Of a stretch of 64,000 bases of DNA, positions 9,744-63,357 are shown piece after piece. The stretch covers positions 513,377-577,376 of the forward strand of contig JAHJQF010000001.1 in NCBI GenBank assembly GCA_018819405.1. The letters are read 5' to 3'. How positions within the stretch are numbered: position 1 is the first letter of the stretch; each line of letters opens with the position of its first letter. The stretch comes from Patescibacteria group bacterium (GTDB taxonomy: Bacteria > Patescibacteriota > Patescibacteriia > UBA1558 > GWA2-36-10). A program made the translations under genes and the position numbers. A model generated the notes under the pieces. That model was not told the DNA's origin. It saw only the letters and a list, made by a program, of their open reading frames with translations, and ran no database searches.

Positions 9744-10208
9744 ATGGCCGTAATTATCAATTATCCGGTAGTAGAAAAGCCGGCACCTCACTTTGAGGGC
9801 AATGCTGTAGGTAATGCCCTTTGGAATCTGCTACAACTGGAGCAGGAAGGACACATATTGCCGGAGCTGCAGTTCCATCTGCAAGGAGGGAGGGTTTTGA
9901 CCCGCATGAAATTGGTGTCCAGCCAGTGTAAGGTGGATGAATGTACTGGTCATGTCACGGTTGTGGCTCGGGCGGCTACTTCCTGTCACTGCCCCTGCAG
10001 TCTGCAGAGGCTTCACTTCGTCCCGGACAACGGGGTGGCTATCGAACACGATGGTTTGATTGTGGCGATGACAGTGGGCTACCCCAGCTGGGAAGCCTGG
10101 ACAGTCATTGAGAATACTCACCTCAAGATCAGGAAGACATTCAAGCCGGATGGCAGCGTCGAGACCGAGGACCTCAATTCCAAACAGCCCAAGGATAAGG
10201 TAGGCTAG
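9744..10208 (+). CDS. hypothetical protein in a GC-rich island
   Basis: 154-aa ORF of about 55% GC in a genome of about 35% GC. Strong GGAAGGGG ribosome-binding site 7 nt upstream. No recognizable family. A 96-aa antisense ORF at 9831-10121 is probably an artefact of the high GC. Confidence 0.45.
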   Translation: MAVIINYPVVEKPAPHFEGNAVGNALWNLLQLEQEGHILPELQFHLQGGRVLTRMKLVSSQCKVDECTGHVTVVARAATSCHCPCSLQRLHFVPDNGVAIEHDGLIVAMTVGYPSWEAWTVIENTHLKIRKTFKPDGSVETEDLNSKQPKDKVG

Positions 10209-17502: not shown

Positions 17503-18003
17503 ATGAAGAAGCTCACCATCCTGTTCGCTTTGGTGTTGACTCTGCTTGCTTTGACCACGATCTTGGTCAACAGGCATGAGGGTGGTGTCTACCGACTGGA
17601 AGTTTCCGGGGACAGCATCAGTGATATGGTTCGTCGAGGCAATTATGATTGGACCAACTCCAACATCAATGATGACTACTTCACTGCTGATGCTCCGCAC
17701 GAAGCGAACATCATTATTTTCAAGCACTTCGGCGAGGACATGAGCACGAAGGCCGTGCTCAAAGCTCTGGATGACGACGGCTTACGTCCGGCAACTATGT
17801 CCGAGCTACTCGAGCTTGGCATTTGCTATCCCGAATTGCAGAAGCAGTTTCCTATCGTCGCCCTCGGTTCTATCTCTCAGGATCCGTATGGCGACCGCTC
17901 TGTCGGTTTCCTCTACTCCGTTGATGGTCAGCGCGAGCTCGGCCTGGACTGGATCGACGATGACTGGTACGACCACTTTCGTTTCGCCGCTGTCCGCAAG
18001 TAA
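17503..18003 (+). CDS. secreted hypothetical protein in a GC-rich island
   Basis: About 55% GC. Strong GGAGG ribosome-binding site 8 nt upstream. N-terminal signal peptide MKKLTILFALVLTLLALTT. No recognizable domain. Confidence 0.5.
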   Translation: MKKLTILFALVLTLLALTTILVNRHEGGVYRLEVSGDSISDMVRRGNYDWTNSNINDDYFTADAPHEANIIIFKHFGEDMSTKAVLKALDDDGLRPATMSELLELGICYPELQKQFPIVALGSISQDPYGDRSVGFLYSVDGQRELGLDWIDDDWYDHFRFAAVRK

Positions 18004-35183: not shown

Positions 35184-35645
35184 TCAATCTCCTTGTTCGG
35201 TGTAGTAGTGTTCGGTCGGGTAGTCTGGTAGGGATAACCCTAAAAACATGACTAAACTCATCAGCCCCATGAGAAAAGCGGATAGTACACAGACCCGAGG
35301 CACGGCCAACGAAGATGAATTGACAAAAAGCCAACTGACCCAAGTGACCCCGATGGATACTTTTAGCAGTACAAAGCCATCATTTTGCTGGCCAATAGTG
35401 GCTACGATCAACATTATGCCGGCCAGACTGGGCAGAATAGACAACCAATTGTAGTCTAGGAGCATCAGCGGACCACTGATGCCCAAAAGCACCATGGCCA
35501 GTACTTCGCGCCAGTTGGTCAGCGGACGGGCAAAGGTTAGCCCGACGATGGTCAGGCCCAAGCCGACCACGACAGGCTGGCTGTTGAATAAGGCTATAGC
35601 CAGCATGGTAAAAGCCGACAGGATGGTCAGTAGAACGGATTTCAT
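35184..35645 (-). CDS. integral membrane protein, 4-5 TM (GC-rich operon, gene 1)
   Basis: 153 aa, highly hydrophobic, GC-rich. GGAG-like ribosome-binding site upstream of the ATG at 35645. Confidence 0.5.
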   Translation of the reverse strand: MKSVLLTILSAFTMLAIALFNSQPVVVGLGLTIVGLTFARPLTNWREVLAMVLLGISGPLMLLDYNWLSILPSLAGIMLIVATIGQQNDGFVLLKVSIGVTWVSWLFVNSSSLAVPRVCVLSAFLMGLMSLVMFLGLSLPDYPTEHYYTEQGD

Positions 35646-42381: not shown

Positions 42382-42453
42382 CCCCCGTTGGTCCAATTGG
42401 ACAGGACACCTGCCAGTCAGGTAATATAGGTTCAAATCCTATACGGGGTACCA
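42382..42453 (+). tRNA. degenerate tRNA-like element (T-arm + acceptor + CCA, abnormal D/anticodon arms)
   Basis: Good T-arm ATAGG-TTCAAAT-CCTAT and a 3' acceptor ACGGGGT-A-CCA. The D region is the perfect palindrome GTCCAATTGGAC and the anticodon arm folds with a 5-nt loop. Either a tRNA pseudogene or an unusual tRNA. Confidence 0.3.
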
Positions 42454-45749: not shown

Positions 45750-46742
45750 ATGGCCAAAGCAAATAAAAAAATATATTTACTCTTAGCTGGCGGTACTTGT
45801 ATTTTGGATAAAGATAGCCGTATTTTTGCAATTAATGAAAAAAAAGACATTGATTATTGGTTTGATTTAATGCCAGAGCTGCGTATTTTGGCTGACATAG
45901 AAACAGTTTTGATTTCTAGCGAAGACCAAGTAGTAGACACTAGTGTCTGGCAGAAAATTGCCAAGAGTATTGTAGACAGAGAAAAATCAGCCGATGGTTT
46001 TGTAGTAGTGACAAAAATAGACCAACTTGTCAACACCTCTTTAGCAATTAATTTTTTGTTGCAGAATTTTAAAAAGTCTATTATTTTTACCAGTTCCCAA
46101 GTCAGCGGCAGTAGTTTTGTAGACAAAAAAGAAGTAATAAATAAACTAAAATCAAAACACGGTGGGTTAGGCCTAAGGACCAATTTGATAAACGCTATTC
46201 AAATTGCTTGTGAGCCTCTTCCACAGACAGCTGTTTTGTTTGGTACTAGGTTAATCGCTTCTACCAAAGCAATAGTAGATCTTCAGGATAGTATAAACAA
46301 TTTTATCAGTGTGGAAGGTAATTATTTAGCCAAAATTGATTTTGGTATAAATTTGAAATCGGGACTCAAATATTCCACCAAAAAAACAGAGATTTATCCC
46401 AGTATGTCAGCCAAAGTTTTGGCAATCTATGATATCCCAGGTATTGATTGGCAGTTTGAGCAAACTGATATGGCTAAATACGACGGGCTATTTATCAAAA
46501 TATCTCCCTTTCAAAACCTTGAAAATGTCAAAATAAAAAAAATAAATAATTGGAAAATACCGACAGTAATTTTTAATTCACGATATGTACCAGTTGTAAA
46601 AGGAGCGGTATCTGTATCAGGTTGTACTTTTAACTCAGCTCTTATCAAAACTATTTGGGCCTTGTCAAACAAAAAGAAACTACCAGATTTTGAAAATGTG
46701 ATGAAGCAAAATATAATTGGTGAGTTTAATTCACCCCGTTAA
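45750..46742 (+). CDS. asparaginase/glutaminase-family protein (putative)
   Basis: N-terminal IYLLLAGGTCIL resembles the TGGTIAG threonine motif of L-asparaginases. About 330 aa. The C-terminal SPR* is encoded by the palindromic element. Confidence 0.4.
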   Translation: MAKANKKIYLLLAGGTCILDKDSRIFAINEKKDIDYWFDLMPELRILADIETVLISSEDQVVDTSVWQKIAKSIVDREKSADGFVVVTKIDQLVNTSLAINFLLQNFKKSIIFTSSQVSGSSFVDKKEVINKLKSKHGGLGLRTNLINAIQIACEPLPQTAVLFGTRLIASTKAIVDLQDSINNFISVEGNYLAKIDFGINLKSGLKYSTKKTEIYPSMSAKVLAIYDIPGIDWQFEQTDMAKYDGLFIKISPFQNLENVKIKKINNWKIPTVIFNSRYVPVVKGAVSVSGCTFNSALIKTIWALSNKKKLPDFENVMKQNIIGEFNSPR

Positions 46743-46760
46743 ATAAATTTAAATCATAAT

Positions 46761-47018
46761 ATGAATCATTATGTATATATATTAAAAAGTAAGAAAGATA
46801 ATAACTTCTATGTAGGTTATACTAAAGATTTAAATTTAAGATTTAAGCAACACCAAGAAGCTAAAGTAGAATCAACTAAAAACAGAAGACCATTAAATTT
46901 GATATATTATGAATGTTGTTTAAATCAACAAGATGCTACTAAGAGAGAAAAATATTTAAAAACATATCTTGGTAGATATTATATCAAGAAAAGGCTTAAA
47001 TCTTATTTAACGGGGTAA
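46761..47018 (+). CDS. GIY-YIG nuclease family protein (85 aa)
   Basis: YVYILKS...NFYVGYTKDLNLRFKQH is a GIY-YIG motif. The gene is flanked by CCCCGTTAAAT (46736-46746) and ATTTAACGGGG (47005-47015), and its stop lies in the right repeat. Confidence 0.7.
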   Translation: MNHYVYILKSKKDNNFYVGYTKDLNLRFKQHQEAKVESTKNRRPLNLIYYECCLNQQDATKREKYLKTYLGRYYIKKRLKSYLTG

Positions 47019-47020
47019 AT

Positions 47021-47581
47021 ATGAAAATTTATTTTTATACCAATCAGGAGCTAAATAACACTGACGCCAAAGAAATTATCAATCACTTGAGGCGGGCAGA
47101 TATTGAGGTCATTAGTAGCTTGAGTAGCTCTTCAGATACGCAACTTGAAAGAGTGGATGCTTTTGTTTTTCAGGGACAAAAATTTGATACTAAGGCTGGA
47201 TATTTGACAGCTCTAGCTTTGGCGCAGAGCAAAGAGGTGCTTTGTCTTTTGCCTAGTGGTAGCAAAATTGATAGCTCGTTGGCCAGCCTGAGAGATAATA
47301 GGAATTTGGCCAAGCATTTATTGGTAGAATTTTATACTGATAGTGACTTGTCAGATAAACTGGAAAAATTTTTGACCAAATTGGACAAAAAAACTATCCG
47401 GGATTTGTTTAATATCAAATATACTTTGAGAGTATCGGGCAAGATAAATGATTATCTCAATTGGAAAGCCAGAGAAAAATCTGTCAAAAAAGCCGACTGG
47501 ATAAGGGACAACATACAGGATTTGATGAAAAATGATGAGAAATATCAGGATTTTTTAAAAAATAAATTTAAGGCTGGCTAA
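47021..47581 (+). CDS. hypothetical protein (possible nucleoside 2-deoxyribosyltransferase-like N-domain)
   Basis: ADIEVIS...DAFVFQGQKFDTKAGYLTALALAQSKEVLCLLP loosely resembles the NDT/Rcl fold. Low confidence. Confidence 0.3.
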   Translation: MKIYFYTNQELNNTDAKEIINHLRRADIEVISSLSSSSDTQLERVDAFVFQGQKFDTKAGYLTALALAQSKEVLCLLPSGSKIDSSLASLRDNRNLAKHLLVEFYTDSDLSDKLEKFLTKLDKKTIRDLFNIKYTLRVSGKINDYLNWKAREKSVKKADWIRDNIQDLMKNDEKYQDFLKNKFKAG

Positions 47582-54205: not shown

Positions 54206-54217
54206 TATTAGTTTTAT

Positions 54218-54251
54218 TACCGCCGCGGCAAAGCCGCGGCGGTTTTTTTAT
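54218..54251 (+). terminator. rho-independent terminator
   Basis: accgccgcgg caaa gccgcggcggt followed by ttttttt. Confidence 0.85.
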
Positions 54252-54259
54252 TATTTCTA

Positions 54260-54306
54260 TTGACAAGTTATTTCTATTGCTATAAACATAGCGACGGCTC
54301 TAGAAA
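54260..54306 (+). promoter_or_regulatory. promoter plus palindromic operator-like motif upstream of the radical-SAM gene
   Basis: TTGACA, a 15-bp spacer, TATAAA. GCTATAAACATAGC-GACGGCTCTAGAAA shares a 20-plus-nt core with 60948-60975. Confidence 0.5.
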
Positions 54307-54368
54307 ATGTCCTCTCACAATTTTGTCTTTTTGGTCTAGAAACCTTGGTGCTTAGAAAGGAGCATATT

Positions 54369-55388
54369 ATGTTTTGCTGGCTTACCGTTAACAGATCTTG
54401 TAACATGCGTTGCCATTGGTGCTACGCTAAAGAAAAGATTGATAGTTCTTCTAGTATGACTCTAGATGTTCTGGAGTCAATATTGAGTGTGGTGGCTAAT
54501 AAACCAATAAACGTTTTTACACTTATTGGTGGAGAGCCAACCATACACAAAGATCTATCGTCTTTCATCAAGCGCCTCAAGCCATCACGAGTAATGATGG
54601 TAAGTAATGGTTTGAGATTGGCAAATATGTCATATTTGTTCAATCTCAAGGAGAGTGGTTTGGATGTAGTAGCTCTTTCTTTGAAAGGGGCAAATCAAGC
54701 GGAGTACCTAAAAAACACTGGTGTGCCAGGATTGGATAAGGTAGAACGGGCGGTAGCTAATATGAATGCTTTGGGCATGCAGTACAATATTTCGGTTACG
54801 TTTTCAGATAGTGTCATGGATTCGTTGCCGATGATATTGGATTGGATGCAATCATCCAATGCTCAAAGTATGTCTATAAACTATTGCCGACCTTATGTAG
54901 TCGACGGTAGAATCAGTGCACAGGGGGTTCCTAGCCCCGTAGAGATGGCAGAAAGGACAGTGCAGAGTTACGAGCTGATCAGGAAAAGCGGAGTACGCTG
55001 TACCTTTTCTTTCTTGTTGCCGCTGTGTTTGTTGCCGCGGGAGTTTATTGACTTGCTAGTCTCAAGGAATGAACTCTCAACAATCTGTCAACTTCAGAAG
55101 CATACAGGTATCATTTTTGAACCAGATGGTAGTCTAATCCCTTGTCATCATTTGTTTGACTACAAGCTCGGGAAGCTTGGAGAGGATTTTACTACCGCTG
55201 CGGAATTTGATACCTTTATGGAAGGAGGTAAAATATCAAGGTTTTATCGTAAGACAGGCGGTTTTCCACACGAAAAATGTTTGTCTTGCGATTTGCGAAC
55301 AAGGTGTGGTGGAGGCTGCTTGGTACAACACCTGCAGTATTCTCCTAGTGAATTAATACCCCAAGCTTTTGAAAGGATGGAGAAATGA
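54369..55388 (+). CDS. radical SAM / SPASM-domain peptide-modifying enzyme
   Basis: CNMRCHWC (CxxxCxxC) at the N-terminus. C-terminal SPASM CLSCDLRTRCGGGC. Start at ATG 54369, preceded by AAAGGAG. Confidence 0.8.
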   Translation: MFCWLTVNRSCNMRCHWCYAKEKIDSSSSMTLDVLESILSVVANKPINVFTLIGGEPTIHKDLSSFIKRLKPSRVMMVSNGLRLANMSYLFNLKESGLDVVALSLKGANQAEYLKNTGVPGLDKVERAVANMNALGMQYNISVTFSDSVMDSLPMILDWMQSSNAQSMSINYCRPYVVDGRISAQGVPSPVEMAERTVQSYELIRKSGVRCTFSFLLPLCLLPREFIDLLVSRNELSTICQLQKHTGIIFEPDGSLIPCHHLFDYKLGKLGEDFTTAAEFDTFMEGGKISRFYRKTGGFPHEKCLSCDLRTRCGGGCLVQHLQYSPSELIPQAFERMEK

Positions 55389-58439: not shown

Positions 58440-59699
58440 ATGAATAAAGATATTATCATTATTGGAAAGAGAGCTAAGGATGCTTCTCGGGAATTTGCTA
58501 CTGCAAGTAGTCAGCAAAAAAATGCGTTGCTGACTACTCTGGCATCTATGATAGCCTTTTATAAAAAGCAAATTCTTGATGCCAACAAAAAAGATCTATC
58601 AAATTATGTTAAAGATCATCCATTTTTTGATCGTCTAATGCTCAATGATTAGCGTCTGGATGAAATTAGACGTAGTTTGTTGGCTGTAGCCAAATTGCCT
58701 GATCCAATAGGAGAAATATCAGATGAAAAACGTCGTCCTAGCGGTATAGTAGTGTCCCGTATGAGAGTGCCTTTGGGTGTATTGGGAGTTATTTATGAAG
58801 CTAGACCAAATGTGACTATAGAGATTTCTAGTTTGGGGCTCAAATCGGGTAATGCTATTGTACTCAAGGGTGGTAAAGAAGCTATAAATAGTAATCAGAT
58901 TTTGGTAAAGATTATCCAAAAAGCCTTGGTCAAAAATGGATTTTCTAAATATACTGTTCAGCTTATCGGCACAAATCAGCGTAGTTTGGTGGCTGATATG
59001 ATAAGGATGAATAAATATATAGATGTTATAGTCCCTCGTGGAGGCAGGAGACTGATTGATTTTGTCAGAGACAATGCCTCGGTGCCTGTGATTGAGACCG
59101 GAGCAGGAGTTTGCCATACTTATGTAGAAAAAAGTGCTGATTTGAAAAAAGCCGTAAGGATTGTGGTGAATGCCAAGACCCAGCGGCCAAGTGTCTGTAA
59201 TGCTTTGGATACTTTGGTACTAGACAGTCAGATTGCCAAAAAGTTTTTGGCGTTATTGTCAGAGGAGCTGTCAAAGCACAGTGTGTTACTGCGCGCCGAT
59301 TCGGTCAGCTATTATATATTAAAAAAATATTATCCCAACAGTTTATTAAAAAAAGCTAAATTGTCAGATTTTAGCAAAGAATTTTTGGGTTTGGAGATGT
59401 CTATCAAAACAGTCAATAATGCTAAACAAGCTATGGATTTTATACAAGAGTATAGTTCGGGACATTCAGAAGCAATTTTGACCAAAAATGCCAAACTGGG
59501 ACAAATTTTTTTGAGGACAATTGATGCCGCAGCAGTCTATGTTAATACTTCCACTCGTTTTACAGATGGTTTTGAATTTGGTCTGGGTGCTGAAGTAGGT
59601 ATTTCTACTCAAAAATTGCACGCCAGAGGTCCTATGGGTCTCAAGGCGCTTACTAGTATGAAGTGGATTGTAAATAGTGATTGGAAGGGCAGGAAATAA
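58440..59699 (+). pseudogene. proA: gamma-glutamyl phosphate reductase interrupted by one in-frame TAG (codon 71)
   Basis: ORFs 58440-58652 and 58677-59699 are in the same frame and together span full-length ProA. They are separated only by TAG at 58650-58652. There are no other lesions. Confidence 0.5.
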
Positions 59700-60822: not shown

Positions 60823-60856
60823 AAAAGCAGGTTTCAAAGAAACTGGCAAAATAAAT

Positions 60857-60898
60857 ACAACCTCCGAGGTTAATCAACCTCCGAGGTTGTTTTTTTAC
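60857..60898 (+). terminator. rho-independent terminator
   Basis: caacctccgagg...cctccgaggttg followed by ttttttt. Confidence 0.7.
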
Positions 60899-60928
60899 TT
60901 GACAGTCTTTTTTTGTTGTTATATATTT

Positions 60929-60975
60929 AGAGTAGAAGCTAGAGACGGCTATAAATATAGCGACGGCTCTAAACA
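60929..60975 (+). promoter_or_regulatory. palindromic operator-like motif, copy 2 (upstream of the NTase-GNAT operon)
   Basis: GCTATAAATATAGC-GACGGCTCTAAACA preceded by the half-site AGAGACGGCT. Same core as 54279-54306. Confidence 0.5.
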
Positions 60976-61033
60976 TAGCTCTTTAAAATAAAGAGAGAAA
61001 GGTAATTGACTTCCTAAGAGAAAGGAGGAAATC

Positions 61034-61987
61034 ATGACTCAGCAAACTTTGTGTTGCTACGATTTGATTATGGTCAGGTCGGGCGAAATACTCACAATAA
61101 ATGGTAACTTTGATGGAGAATATTGCCGTGCTACTTTGAGCTTGTTTCCCTCTTCTATGGGGAATAGGCTTATAGACGGCCGTGTATATAAGAAAGCAAC
61201 TTATGAGTTGGGATATAAGATTCCCTACGTCAGGAAGATATTAGATTTACCTGGTCAGCAGCAGTTTTTGGTAGACAGGAACAGCATCGTCAGAGTGTAT
61301 TCTGCAAGGAGAGCTTTTGACTCTTTGTCCTTTCAGGATAAAATTAGGACGCGTTTGTTCATGGACTATCTGGGTCTAGATTACAATTTTCACGGTTTGA
61401 CTGGTAGTAGTGCATCGGGCTGTCGGCTCTCTGACTCTGACTTTGATTGGGTTTTGTATACCAATCAATTATGGTCAGTTAAACAGAGGGTAGTTGATGT
61501 CCCTAGGATGTTGACTTTCGATATGCAACACGCTTATCGAAAGTATCATGTCTTTGAGGTGCTGTCTAAGCAGGACATAGATTTGATTTTTGGCAATAAG
61601 TGGAAGTATCTATGGTTTTGCGGTCTGCACATATCAGTTAATTTTGTTGATATGGCTGTACGCGCTGACCACCTTTGCGATACTGACAATTGCCGAGATC
61701 GTCTTGTTTTGCGAGGTAGGGTAATAGATGGGAAAGGCTCCTATTACTCTCCTTATGTCATTCCATTCGAAAGCGATGGGCAGACGTACCAGATACTCAC
61801 TTGGCTTTATTTGTATAATGGAGCCTTTGCATCTGGTGACCTAATAGAGCTATCAGCTCGGAGAGGATCTTTTGGAGGGCAGGAGTATTTGGTAGTCGAA
61901 AGACCACCAGATTACATTCGTAAGTTGGTCTGCAAGGATGGAGGAGGCTATGTCTCTGATAGACTATATTCAGCTAGTAGTAGCTGA
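61034..61987 (+). CDS. Pol-beta-superfamily nucleotidyltransferase (cGAS/DncV-like arrangement)
   Basis: GLTGSSASGCRLSDSDFDW gives GS-x9-SDSD at residues about 115-133, with the acidic DIDLIF about 60 aa later. Ribosome-binding site GAAAGGAGG. About 42-45% GC. Confidence 0.5.
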   Translation: MTQQTLCCYDLIMVRSGEILTINGNFDGEYCRATLSLFPSSMGNRLIDGRVYKKATYELGYKIPYVRKILDLPGQQQFLVDRNSIVRVYSARRAFDSLSFQDKIRTRLFMDYLGLDYNFHGLTGSSASGCRLSDSDFDWVLYTNQLWSVKQRVVDVPRMLTFDMQHAYRKYHVFEVLSKQDIDLIFGNKWKYLWFCGLHISVNFVDMAVRADHLCDTDNCRDRLVLRGRVIDGKGSYYSPYVIPFESDGQTYQILTWLYLYNGAFASGDLIELSARRGSFGGQEYLVVERPPDYIRKLVCKDGGGYVSDRLYSASSS

Positions 61988-62447
61988 AGACAGTAGAATC
62001 GTCGAGTTGTGTGAGTTTTTGAGTCGGGAGGACATAGACCGTTCTTTTGTCCTACCATTGTCTAGTAGGGACATTAGCATTAGAGAAAGGGTGGTAAAAA
62101 TACAAAAGCAAGGTTTTTGGTTGCTGGCTATACATGGAAACAAAATAGTTGGCTGCCGTGGCTGCAAAGGAATTGTTGACGAAAAGGAGGATATTTTGGA
62201 GTTTTCCACCACAGTTGTTGACCCTAGTTATCGGGGGATTGGTTTGGGGATGCTTATCTTCCGACAAGGGGTCAAGTTAGCTCGTGATCGGTATAAGCCC
62301 AAAGTCGTGAGGATGGACAGTACGCCTGATAATGAAGCCATCAAGAGGATGGCTGCCGATTCAGGTTTTGTTGTAAGTCGTATCTACGACGATCCTGTAA
62401 AAAGAGGCTCTGGAGGAAAGTCAATCGAATATATTCTCTGTTTATAG
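61950..62447 (+). CDS. GNAT family N-acetyltransferase
   Basis: Motif A VVDPSYRGIGLGMLIFRQGVKLA. Ribosome-binding site GGAGGAGG. Overlaps the NTase by 38 nt. Confidence 0.65.
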   Translation: MSLIDYIQLVVAEDSRIVELCEFLSREDIDRSFVLPLSSRDISIRERVVKIQKQGFWLLAIHGNKIVGCRGCKGIVDEKEDILEFSTTVVDPSYRGIGLGMLIFRQGVKLARDRYKPKVVRMDSTPDNEAIKRMAADSGFVVSRIYDDPVKRGSGGKSIEYILCL

Positions 62448-62515
62448 CCCCTGTGCCACAAGGTGCAGGGGCATCCAATATTGTTAGTTGTTTGATAAAT
62501 TATTATAATAAATGT

Positions 62516-63328
62516 ATGAAAATAAAGATATTAGGATCAGGAGCTTGGCAAGGTATTCCAGCATCGTTTTGTAACTGCGATATTTGTCAGAAGGCATCCA
62601 AAAATTTATATACTAAAGACGCTCGTACTCGTCCACAATTTATGGTTGAGACCAAACAGGGGACTTTCTTGATGGAAATAAGCCCTGATATAAGGCTGCA
62701 ATCCACCAGGTTTTCTTTACCAAACGTTAATAATTTTTTAGTAAGTCATTGGCATTTTGATCACATGTATGGTTTGCATGAACTTTTGACTTGGTCAAAG
62801 GGATTGGAGACTAGGCCATTGTTATACGGATCTGTTGCCACAAAAGATAAAATAGATAAAGAATTTAGTTATTTGCCATTTGATTTTCAGTTGTTAGAGC
62901 CCTATAAAAAATTTAATATTTTCGGGGTAGATATAACACCATTGCCTTTATATCATGCATTTACAATAGATGAAGAATTTTCAGAAAATGATATTAATAA
63001 CACTTTTGGATATATGCTGGGGCATGAAGGAAAAAAAGTAGTTTATTTATCAGATTATTATAAAGTACCGCAGAAAGTTTTGGATAAAATCAAAGGAGCT
63101 GATGTGTTGATTGCAGACGGCACTTATCTTTTTACTGATAAGTTCAGAGGAATAAAACTAAATCATTTGCATAATGTAGATATATTGCAGTTAGTTGATA
63201 AAATTCAGGCAAAACAAGTTTATTTTCATAGTATTTCCCATTTGACCAGTTTGAACCATCAGGAAATGCAAGAAAAATTGTCAGAAAACCATTTTATTTC
63301 ATACGACGGTTTAGAAATTGATCTTTAA
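62516..63328 (+). CDS. PhnP-like MBL-fold phosphodiesterase
   Basis: CNCDIC (CxCxxC) near the N-terminus plus SHWHFDHMYG (HxHxDH). Start at the internal ATG (MKIKILGSGA). Confidence 0.55.
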   Translation: MKIKILGSGAWQGIPASFCNCDICQKASKNLYTKDARTRPQFMVETKQGTFLMEISPDIRLQSTRFSLPNVNNFLVSHWHFDHMYGLHELLTWSKGLETRPLLYGSVATKDKIDKEFSYLPFDFQLLEPYKKFNIFGVDITPLPLYHAFTIDEEFSENDINNTFGYMLGHEGKKVVYLSDYYKVPQKVLDKIKGADVLIADGTYLFTDKFRGIKLNHLHNVDILQLVDKIQAKQVYFHSISHLTSLNHQEMQEKLSENHFISYDGLEIDL

Positions 63329-63357
63329 TAAATAGTATAAAAACCACCGAGGAGAAA

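Follow-up and report, generated by a model that had tools for sequence, protein, structure and literature searches.

An undescribed Pol-beta nucleotidyltransferase and its dedicated acetyltransferase in Patescibacteria: a candidate bifunctional modification module

What is made, or marked, by a nucleotidyltransferase (NTase) whose gene overlaps that of an acetyltransferase? The question arises from 64,000 nt of DNA of a Patescibacteria group bacterium (assembly GCA_018819405.1, contig JAHJQF010000001.1, positions 513,377-577,376 of the forward strand), here called the window. Towards its end lie the genes for a three-domain NTase and a GNAT acetyltransferase, followed by a gene for a phosphodiesterase of the metallo-beta-lactamase (MBL) fold (Table 1; positions are those of the window, handles such as L001 and L035 denote loci of relatives, and P0063 and the like are relatives' proteins). 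The original prediction, made from the sequence of the window, described a two-gene operon, with ribosome-binding sites unlike those of native genes, which encoded a "cGAS/DncV-like" NTase and a GNAT, and offered three functions: synthesis of a nucleotide signal, modification of aminoglycosides or other antibiotics, or a toxin/antitoxin-like module. A two-gene operon of foreign character is supported by the open reading frames (ORFs), the promoter-like site, the Shine-Dalgarno sites and the trailing hairpin. The NTase belongs to an undescribed family whose domains are arranged in a new way and for which neither Pfam nor NCBIfam has a model and no relative has been solved, and a literature search found no description of this NTase-GNAT pair.

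The window NTase gave no match above threshold in Pfam, NCBIfam, PADLOC or PHROGs, and its sole trace was a sub-threshold match to PF22600 over the GS/DxD segment (12.3 bits, cut-off 27). Sequence searches of the PDB with whole-family, N-domain and C-domain profiles returned nothing meaningful. Close relatives formed 26 clusters in a search of 5.8 billion proteins, all of 300-330 aa and none with a Pfam domain, and the family profile retrieved 275 of 1.84 billion representatives at E <= 1e-3, of about 300-350 aa. Four distant members, P0063, P0108, P0059 and P0164 (family profile E = 1e-6 to 1e-18), pass the gathering threshold of PF01909 (NTP_transf_2; 23-28.5 bits, threshold 21), and thus membership of the NTase in the Pol-beta superfamily is supported transitively. 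In the alignment of 26 family sequences, D136 and D138 are invariant, D212 is present in all 26 and D206 in 25. The invariance of D136 and D138 identifies the catalytic pair as DFD; of the motif originally read as GS-x9-SDSD, the Pol-beta signature therefore stands, with the pair one step 3' of SDSD and a spacing of GS-x10. The third carboxylate would be D206 or D212, 68-74 aa downstream of the pair, with D206 directly following strand 198-205 of the structural model, so that the acidic triad foreseen in the original prediction is intact. These comparisons show a highly divergent Pol-beta NTase, predicted to be catalytically competent.

The AlphaFold model of the NTase (predicted local distance difference test score, pLDDT, 90.5; predicted template modelling score 0.88) comprises a basic, beta-rich N-domain (residues 1-90), a minimal alpha/beta NTase core (90-215), a C-terminal beta-barrel resembling an oligonucleotide/oligosaccharide-binding (OB) fold (about 220-300) and a disordered tail (302-317). 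With the whole model as query, Foldseek returned OB folds only, namely RPA32/14, the LysRS anticodon domain, single-stranded DNA-binding protein (SSB) and ExoVII; the output does not carry the query segment, and these matches were assigned to the C-terminal barrel from its sequence pattern GxVxD...GDxVEVSG...EYILVE. The core modelled alone (pLDDT 88) matched almost only NTases of the Pol-beta fold at the top of the list, i.e., Cid1, poly(A) polymerase (PAP), TUT7, HEPN-MNT, AadA and the CCA-adding enzyme, all of them weakly (E >= 0.19, TM <= 0.43). An internal duplication of the N- and C-terminal barrels found no support in hhalign (probability 0.2). Across the family, the NTase has a median isoelectric point (pI) of 8.1 and its N-domain one of 8.8; that of the OB-like domain, which is neutral or acidic in about half of the family, is 6.4. 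The pI of the GNAT is mostly 8.3-10.

The second protein matches the acetyltransferase family PF00583 (33.6 bits, cut-off 20.7) and has the RGIGLG motif A that had been noted, the G-x-G of which is conserved in at least 90% of the partner GNATs. Its reading frame runs to 62447 and has two possible starts, 61938 and 61950; the ATG at 61950 was taken as the start because homologues align from there, and with this start the 38-nt overlap of the two genes stands as first described. In 19 distinct loci, the gene directly downstream of the NTase gene encodes a homologous GNAT, and the gap between the two is -44 to +24 nt. It accompanies every NTase relative of at least 36% identity and also two far more distant ones, L032 and L033 (profile E = 1e-49 to 1e-57). 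In L025, the two frames are fused into a single ORF of 475 aa, and in the partial proteins P0034 and P0053 the C-terminal part of the NTase runs into the GNAT domain. The pairwise identities of NTases and GNATs correlate with r = 0.96. The GNATs form a small, specific clade, which among solved structures is closest to generic GNATs (3t9y, PA4794); the GNAT of the module is a bare catalytic domain, with no signal-sensing domain. Taken together, the genomic comparisons show a GNAT that appears to exist only as the partner of this NTase, in a pair that is predicted to be translationally coupled, co-varies and is fused in some genomes. An example of decay of the module is seen at L026 (4776-5468), where the NTase breaks off at about residue 212 and the GNAT and MBL genes are intact.

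Among distant relatives of the NTase, the partners are ATP-grasp, PCMT-like and PaaK-like enzymes, and fusion to a polyprenyl synthase also occurs. At L012 (3806-8628), the locus of one such relative, the genes are in order those of an ATP-grasp enzyme, two paralogous NTases that overlap, a NikR-like protein and a third NTase. In three loci of Acidobacteria type with 32-35% identity (L010 4187-6933; L011 4106-6916, where the NTase is frameshifted; L028 356-3300), the gene before the NTase, which it overlaps, encodes a conserved protein of about 300 aa, and no GNAT follows. The motifs GGxCADK, YHTA and SGGRVGCF are invariant in this protein, for which Pfam and the PDB gave no match, and a Methyltransf_11 enzyme accompanies it; the idea that it is an arylamine-N-acetyltransferase-like replacement of the GNAT was dropped, as neither Pfam nor the PDB supports it.

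The third gene encodes a protein that scores 69 bits against PF12706 and 92.9 bits against TIGR03307 (PhnP; cut-off 272.25), which is below equivalog level. Its closest solved relative is 6b9v (E = 7e-20), and PhnP itself (3g1p) matches at E = 4e-16, so that it belongs to the wider PhnP family; a relationship to RNase Z is seen at E = 1e-13. It shares with PhnP and 6b9v the MBL fold, HxHxDH and an N-terminal cluster of Cys residues, and differs from PhnP in its lower score and in having no phn genes near it in the window. The entry 6b9v is described as a FAD-photoproduct diphosphatase of the PhnP family, which cleaves ADP-linked FAD photoproducts (PMC7599082, ref. 15). The proposal that this neighbour is functionally linked to the pair is supported: of 14 informative close loci, 12 have it as their third gene, and the outer flanks vary between loci. 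Catalytic motifs are kept across the family in each of the three proteins (GS/DxD/D in the NTase, motif A in the GNAT, metal motifs in the MBL enzyme). The MBL family is commoner than the pair, with at least 152 proteins at E <= 1e-20 in Patescibacteria and DPANN archaea; the closest copies outside the module, in L034 and L035 (79-81% identity), have no NTase-GNAT genes beside them.

Between the GNAT and MBL genes there is a strong hairpin in 9 of 12 loci, two of them with a canonical T-run, and in the L001 hairpin two G-U wobble pairs are changed into Watson-Crick pairs. The hairpin that was first read as the terminator of the pair is present in the window and lacks a T-run. This intervening hairpin and the promoter-like site before the MBL gene suggest an NTase-GNAT operon with a linked, separately transcribed hydrolase, and as the -10 box lies so close to the ATG, the MBL transcript may be leaderless. 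Among 81 flanking proteins scanned, the sole recurring neighbour was a NUDIX gene, no more than 3.5 kb away at 5 of 15 loci, and no defence genes recurred. Genes for short-chain dehydrogenases/reductases (SDRs) of the NDP-sugar type lie directly downstream in L009, L031 and L032, the last of which has an NTase-GNAT-methyltransferase-SDR operon. The gene directly upstream is ddl both in the window and in L007.

The foreign character of the pair is seen in its composition, in its translation signals and in comparison with other genomes. The GC content is 0.426 for the NTase gene and 0.434 for the GNAT gene, in keeping with the 42-45% first given, and that of the flanks is 0.30-0.35. GGAGG or AGGAG precedes only 4 of the 56 long ORFs of the window, i.e., the NTase, the GNAT and two other GC-rich ORFs, so that the description of AGGAGG-type ribosome-binding sites unlike those of native genes was correct. 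The stretch similar to L001 covers window positions 60899-63343, from the first base of the promoter-like site to the end of the MBL gene, and begins just after the ddl terminator. Identity at the DNA level is 97-100% for the NTase, 93-99% for the GNAT and 81-91% for the MBL gene, whereas the one other alignable block (AMP-ligase to histidine kinase) is about 69% identical, and in L001 the shared stretch occupies a different chromosomal site. L035, which is closer to L001 (histidine kinase 94% identical), has the same flanks as L001 but other genes in the slot upstream of the MBL gene; the L001 MBL protein is 88% identical to the window copy and 80% to that of L035. These comparisons with L001 and L035, together with the foreign Shine-Dalgarno sites and GC content, show recent lateral exchange of the cassette, and the locus is read as an intact and laterally mobile enzyme module. 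Searches of phage-genome, plasmid and viral-contig collections returned no copies of it. The contents of the variable slot are, in L035 (2115-6985), genes for an M15 peptidase, Ddl, SHMT, a methyltransferase and a Ddl-like ATP-grasp enzyme, and, in L001 (7233-8780), NTase-GNAT, as in the window. A separate segment of 295 bp (window 46729-47022; L001 11846-12140) is 90% identical, where the background is about 69%; the L001 copy spans a small GIY-YIG gene, which may be a mobile, homing-endonuclease-like element.

What, then, might two such enzymes do together? Nucleotidyltransferase and acetyltransferase activities that act on one substrate, coupled or fused, are familiar from GlmU and from ANT(3'')-Ii/AAC(6')-IId, and by analogy with the logic of GlmU the reading tentatively preferred here, at clearly less than an even chance, is that the NTase and GNAT would act as one bifunctional enzyme on a single anionic, low-molecular-weight substrate of metabolite type. 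The NTase would place a nucleoside monophosphate (NMP) on a hydroxyl or phosphate group and the GNAT an acetyl group on an amine of the same molecule, the result being either a building block linked to a nucleotide or a toxic analogue made harmless; the PhnP-type enzyme, and the NUDIX hydrolases that are often nearby, would cleave the resulting NMP- or NDP-X linkage, for turnover or reversal. An anionic substrate is favoured, and aminoglycosides disfavoured, because the NTase and the GNAT are both basic; a metabolite is favoured by the SDR, ddl and NUDIX neighbours and by the partners of distant relatives. The resemblance to GlmU is one of logic, as the folds are unrelated. Several points weigh against a metabolite substrate. 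We know of no Pol-beta NTase that makes NDP-sugars or a similar NDP-X, the precedent in the family being that a hydroxyl group attacks; the best matches of the OB-like domain are to OB folds that bind nucleic acids (RPA, the LysRS anticodon domain, SSB), and the nearest, if weak, neighbours of the core are transferases of RNA 3' ends (Cid1, TUT7, PAP, CCA). The SDR neighbours come from three different subfamilies and could be a coincidence, and no kinase, mutase or aminotransferase is consistently present at the loci. A broader statement leaves the substrate (metabolite, peptide or RNA) aside: an undescribed three-domain Pol-beta NTase family, working only with or fused to a dedicated GNAT, would constitute a new "nucleotidylate-and-acetylate" enzyme with a PhnP-type eraser, on a cassette moving among Patescibacteria and a few other phyla, with a substrate and role that match no characterised system. 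The balance of the evidence for and against this statement is, in our judgement, even.

The OB-fold matches and the neighbours of the core speak for a module that modifies or repairs the ends of RNA or tRNA, in which the NTase would extend an RNA 3' end, the GNAT would acetylate the same RNA or its aminoacyl group, and the MBL enzyme would open 2',3'-cyclic phosphates or trim the additions. Beyond the OB-fold matches, which include ExoVII, this reading draws on the neighbours of the core, where Cid1, TUT7, PAP, MTPAP and CCA-adding enzymes are the nearest in structure and profile and where the sub-threshold PF22600 matches fall, on the basic character of both enzymes, on the kinship of the MBL enzyme with PhnP and RNase Z, and on the methyltransferase partners of distant relatives. 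Yet the structural matches of the core are all weak, the NTase has OB-like barrels in place of the helical PAP-associated domain of poly(A) and poly(U) polymerases, the OB-like domain is itself neutral or acidic in about half of the family, the distant partners (ATP-grasp, PaaK-like ligase, polyprenyl synthase, SDR) are atypical of RNA systems, and we know of no NTase-GNAT fusion with RNA as its substrate; action on RNA is considered doubtful, though it is a serious rival to the metabolite reading. A toxin-antitoxin or abortive-infection module, with a GNAT toxin and an NTase antitoxin in the manner of type VII systems, or with NTase and GNAT toxins and the MBL enzyme as an antidote that erases their marks, is unlikely to a greater degree, although the architecture invites it: two overlapping genes in a compact bicistron that has a promoter-like site and a repeat element of its own, is rare and patchy (26 clusters among 5.8 billion proteins) and was recently transferred. 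Some neighbours would also suit it, namely a TIR protein and phage genes at L033, an N6-methylase and a PIF1 helicase at L009, and RHS toxins at L001 and L006. The minimal nucleotidyltransferases (MNTs; PF01909), such as MntA of the type VII HepT/MntA system, likewise have a Pol-beta core with GS-x10-DxD and are the first gene of a compact mobile bicistron; they are about 100-150 aa long, however, whereas the present protein has 317 aa and two additional beta-barrel domains and is partnered by a GNAT rather than HEPN. No HEPN gene occurs in any locus, the window NTase does not match NF047752 (MntA), and the MntA model reaches at most 18.9 of the required 60 bits, in distant relatives only. Similarly, the GNAT has the size typical of toxins that acetylate tRNA (TacT, AtaT, ItaT), about 165 aa, and is mostly basic and the second gene of an overlapping pair, but no TacT/AtaT-type toxin is among its PDB matches at E <= 1, and the upstream gene encodes an NTase in place of a ribbon-helix-helix antitoxin or any other DNA-binding one. 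The lack of a PADLOC match and the mostly housekeeping neighbourhoods also argue against a toxin-antitoxin role, and the in-frame fusions and the absence from phage, plasmid and viral-contig collections lower the small probability that this candidate retains.

For a pair that confers resistance to aminoglycoside-type antibiotics, by an O-nucleotidyltransferase resembling aminoglycoside nucleotidyltransferases (ANTs) and an N-acetyltransferase resembling aminoglycoside acetyltransferases (AACs), there is the general likeness of a sometimes fused Pol-beta NTase and GNAT to bifunctional aminoglycoside-modifying enzymes, the mobility of the module, an APH-family kinase in L032 and a sub-threshold match of the distant P0063 to ANT(3'')(9)/AadA. 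Homology to the known enzymes is not detectable, however: the scores against all ANT and AAC models stay below 5% of the cut-off, the NCBIfam ANT models do not match the window NTase, and P0063 scores 17.6 bits where 560 are required. Aminoglycoside modifiers are typically acidic and both proteins here are basic, which weakens this candidate further; the beta-barrel domains are unlike the helical domains of ANTs, and a conserved phosphodiesterase would have no role, so that resistance is very improbable. The remaining candidate, and the least likely of the three functions in the original prediction, is a cGAS/DncV-like synthase, for whose signal the GNAT would be the effector and the MBL enzyme the degrading phosphodiesterase. 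The NTase does share with cGAS/DncV-like nucleotidyltransferases (CD-NTases; cGAS, DncV, CdnA-H; SMODS/Mab-21) of CBASS systems an acidic triad, GS...DxD...D with a spacing like that of DncV, and a laterally spreading accessory operon, and faint or weak Apyc1-family matches are precomputed for homologues of the MBL enzyme. The spacing of the motif, offered as the mark of CD-NTases, is shared by terminal uridylyltransferases and PAPs and thus does not discriminate. The label "cGAS/DncV-like" fails on profile match, fold and partner: hidden Markov models for SMODS, Mab-21 and CBASS cyclases matched none of the 26 aligned members (Pfam E <= 10; PADLOC E <= 1), the confident model has all-beta domains on both sides of the core and no helical C-terminal lobe, and the Foldseek comparison proposed against cGAS/DncV placed no CD-NTase in the top 50, either for the whole protein or for the core. 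An effector with a nucleotide-sensing domain is not found beside the NTase, its partner being a bare 165-aa GNAT with no PADLOC match, and fusion of synthase to "effector" fits a diffusible signal poorly. Production of a cGAS/DncV-type cyclic signal by this locus is therefore not supported and is regarded as improbable in the extreme. Modification of a single metabolite by NMP and acetyl groups thus stays the tentatively preferred reading, and the result corrects a tempting misannotation as a CBASS-like cyclase.

Table 1. Features of the NTase-GNAT locus and the adjoining MBL gene, in window coordinates
Feature	Position	Strand	Remarks
ddl terminator, upstream boundary	60853-60896	+	two 14-nt copies of CAACCTCCGAGGTT, then a T-run; -20.6 kcal/mol, z = -6.5
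Promoter-like site TTGACA-17-TATATT	60899-60927	+	11/12 consensus matches; consensus match only
Tandem 18-nt direct repeat TAGAGACGGCTATAAATA / TAGCGACGGCTCTAAACA	60940-60975	+	candidate operator
Shine-Dalgarno AAGGAGG, NTase gene	61022-61028	+	
Pol-beta-superfamily NTase, three domains, 317 aa	61034-61987	+	
NTase catalytic motif G124-S125-x10-D136-F-D138-W139	61403-61450	+	invariant in 26 aligned sequences
NTase V205-D206...D212	61646-61669	+	candidates for third catalytic carboxylate, from conservation and model
Shine-Dalgarno GGAGGAGG, GNAT gene	61940-61947	+	in the 3'-terminal part of the NTase gene
Dedicated GNAT acetyltransferase, 165 aa	61950-62447	+	PF00583; overlaps NTase gene by 38 nt
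GNAT motif A YRGIGLG	62229-62249	+	
GC-rich hairpin closing the NTase-GNAT unit	62447-62472	+	11-bp stem; -24.8 kcal/mol, z = -4.3; no T-run after it
Promoter-like site TTGTTA-17-TATAAT	62481-62509	+	-10 box ends 6 nt before MBL ATG; consensus match only
PhnP-family MBL-fold phosphodiesterase/diphosphatase, 270 aa	62516-63328	+	GC 0.325 (host-like); no Shine-Dalgarno site
MBL motifs CNCDIC and HWHFDH	62570-62587 and 62747-62764	+	

Upstream of the NTase gene, the ddl terminator, a sigma-70-like site and the tandem 18-nt repeat follow one another, and the 5' untranslated region has no ATG or GTG and hence no precursor peptide. The repeat is retained in L001. A third copy (54289-54306) lies within an element of about 28 nt, GCTATAAAYATAGCGACGGCTCTARAMA, which is identical at 25 of 28 positions to the version upstream of the NTase and is placed between a terminator with TTGACA site and a radical-SAM gene (54345-55388; element region 54206-54350). 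This gene, with a GC content of 0.42, is the only other sizeable GC-rich gene nearby; because the element is common to both foreign-looking loci, they may share a regulator and be co-regulated. The closest solved relatives of the radical-SAM protein are peptide-modifying enzymes of the SPASM/twitch type (PqqE, anSME, SuiB, CteB, YydG), and the idea that it is a viperin was dropped. In the interval from the element to the radical-SAM gene there is a mini-ORF of 10 codons, whose ATG is at 54307.

Some other features of the window were seen in passing. No Shine-Dalgarno site precedes 49 of the 56 long ORFs, as is usual for its native genes, and a TAACGGG(G) motif at nine sites (e.g. 5127, 17097, 35912, 42855, 44346, 47008, 58433), several of which directly abut a start codon, may be an alternative signal for the start of translation or transcription in this lineage. 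Three unrelated small ORFs of 153-166 aa, at 9744-10208 (+), 17503-18003 (+) and 35184-35645 (-), have a GC content of 51-53% in a genome of about 35%; two carry strong Shine-Dalgarno sites, and all three are probably other foreign acquisitions. A proA-like gene (gamma-glutamyl phosphate reductase) is split by an in-frame stop into 58440-58652 and 58677-59699, by pseudogenisation or sequencing error. Rfam places a third tRNA at 42382-42450 (45.6 bits), which ARAGORN does not report.

Patescibacteria have tiny genomes and depend on hosts, and an intact module that is exchanged laterally among such genomes is therefore likely to matter for their lifestyle. The obligate pairing of the NTase with its GNAT, and their occasional fusion, predict a chemistry of two marks, as yet undescribed among Pol-beta enzymes. 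Identification of the substrate would annotate about 275 protein clusters and would add either a GlmU-like activity in an unrelated fold or a new system of nucleotidylation and acetylation for RNA or peptides.

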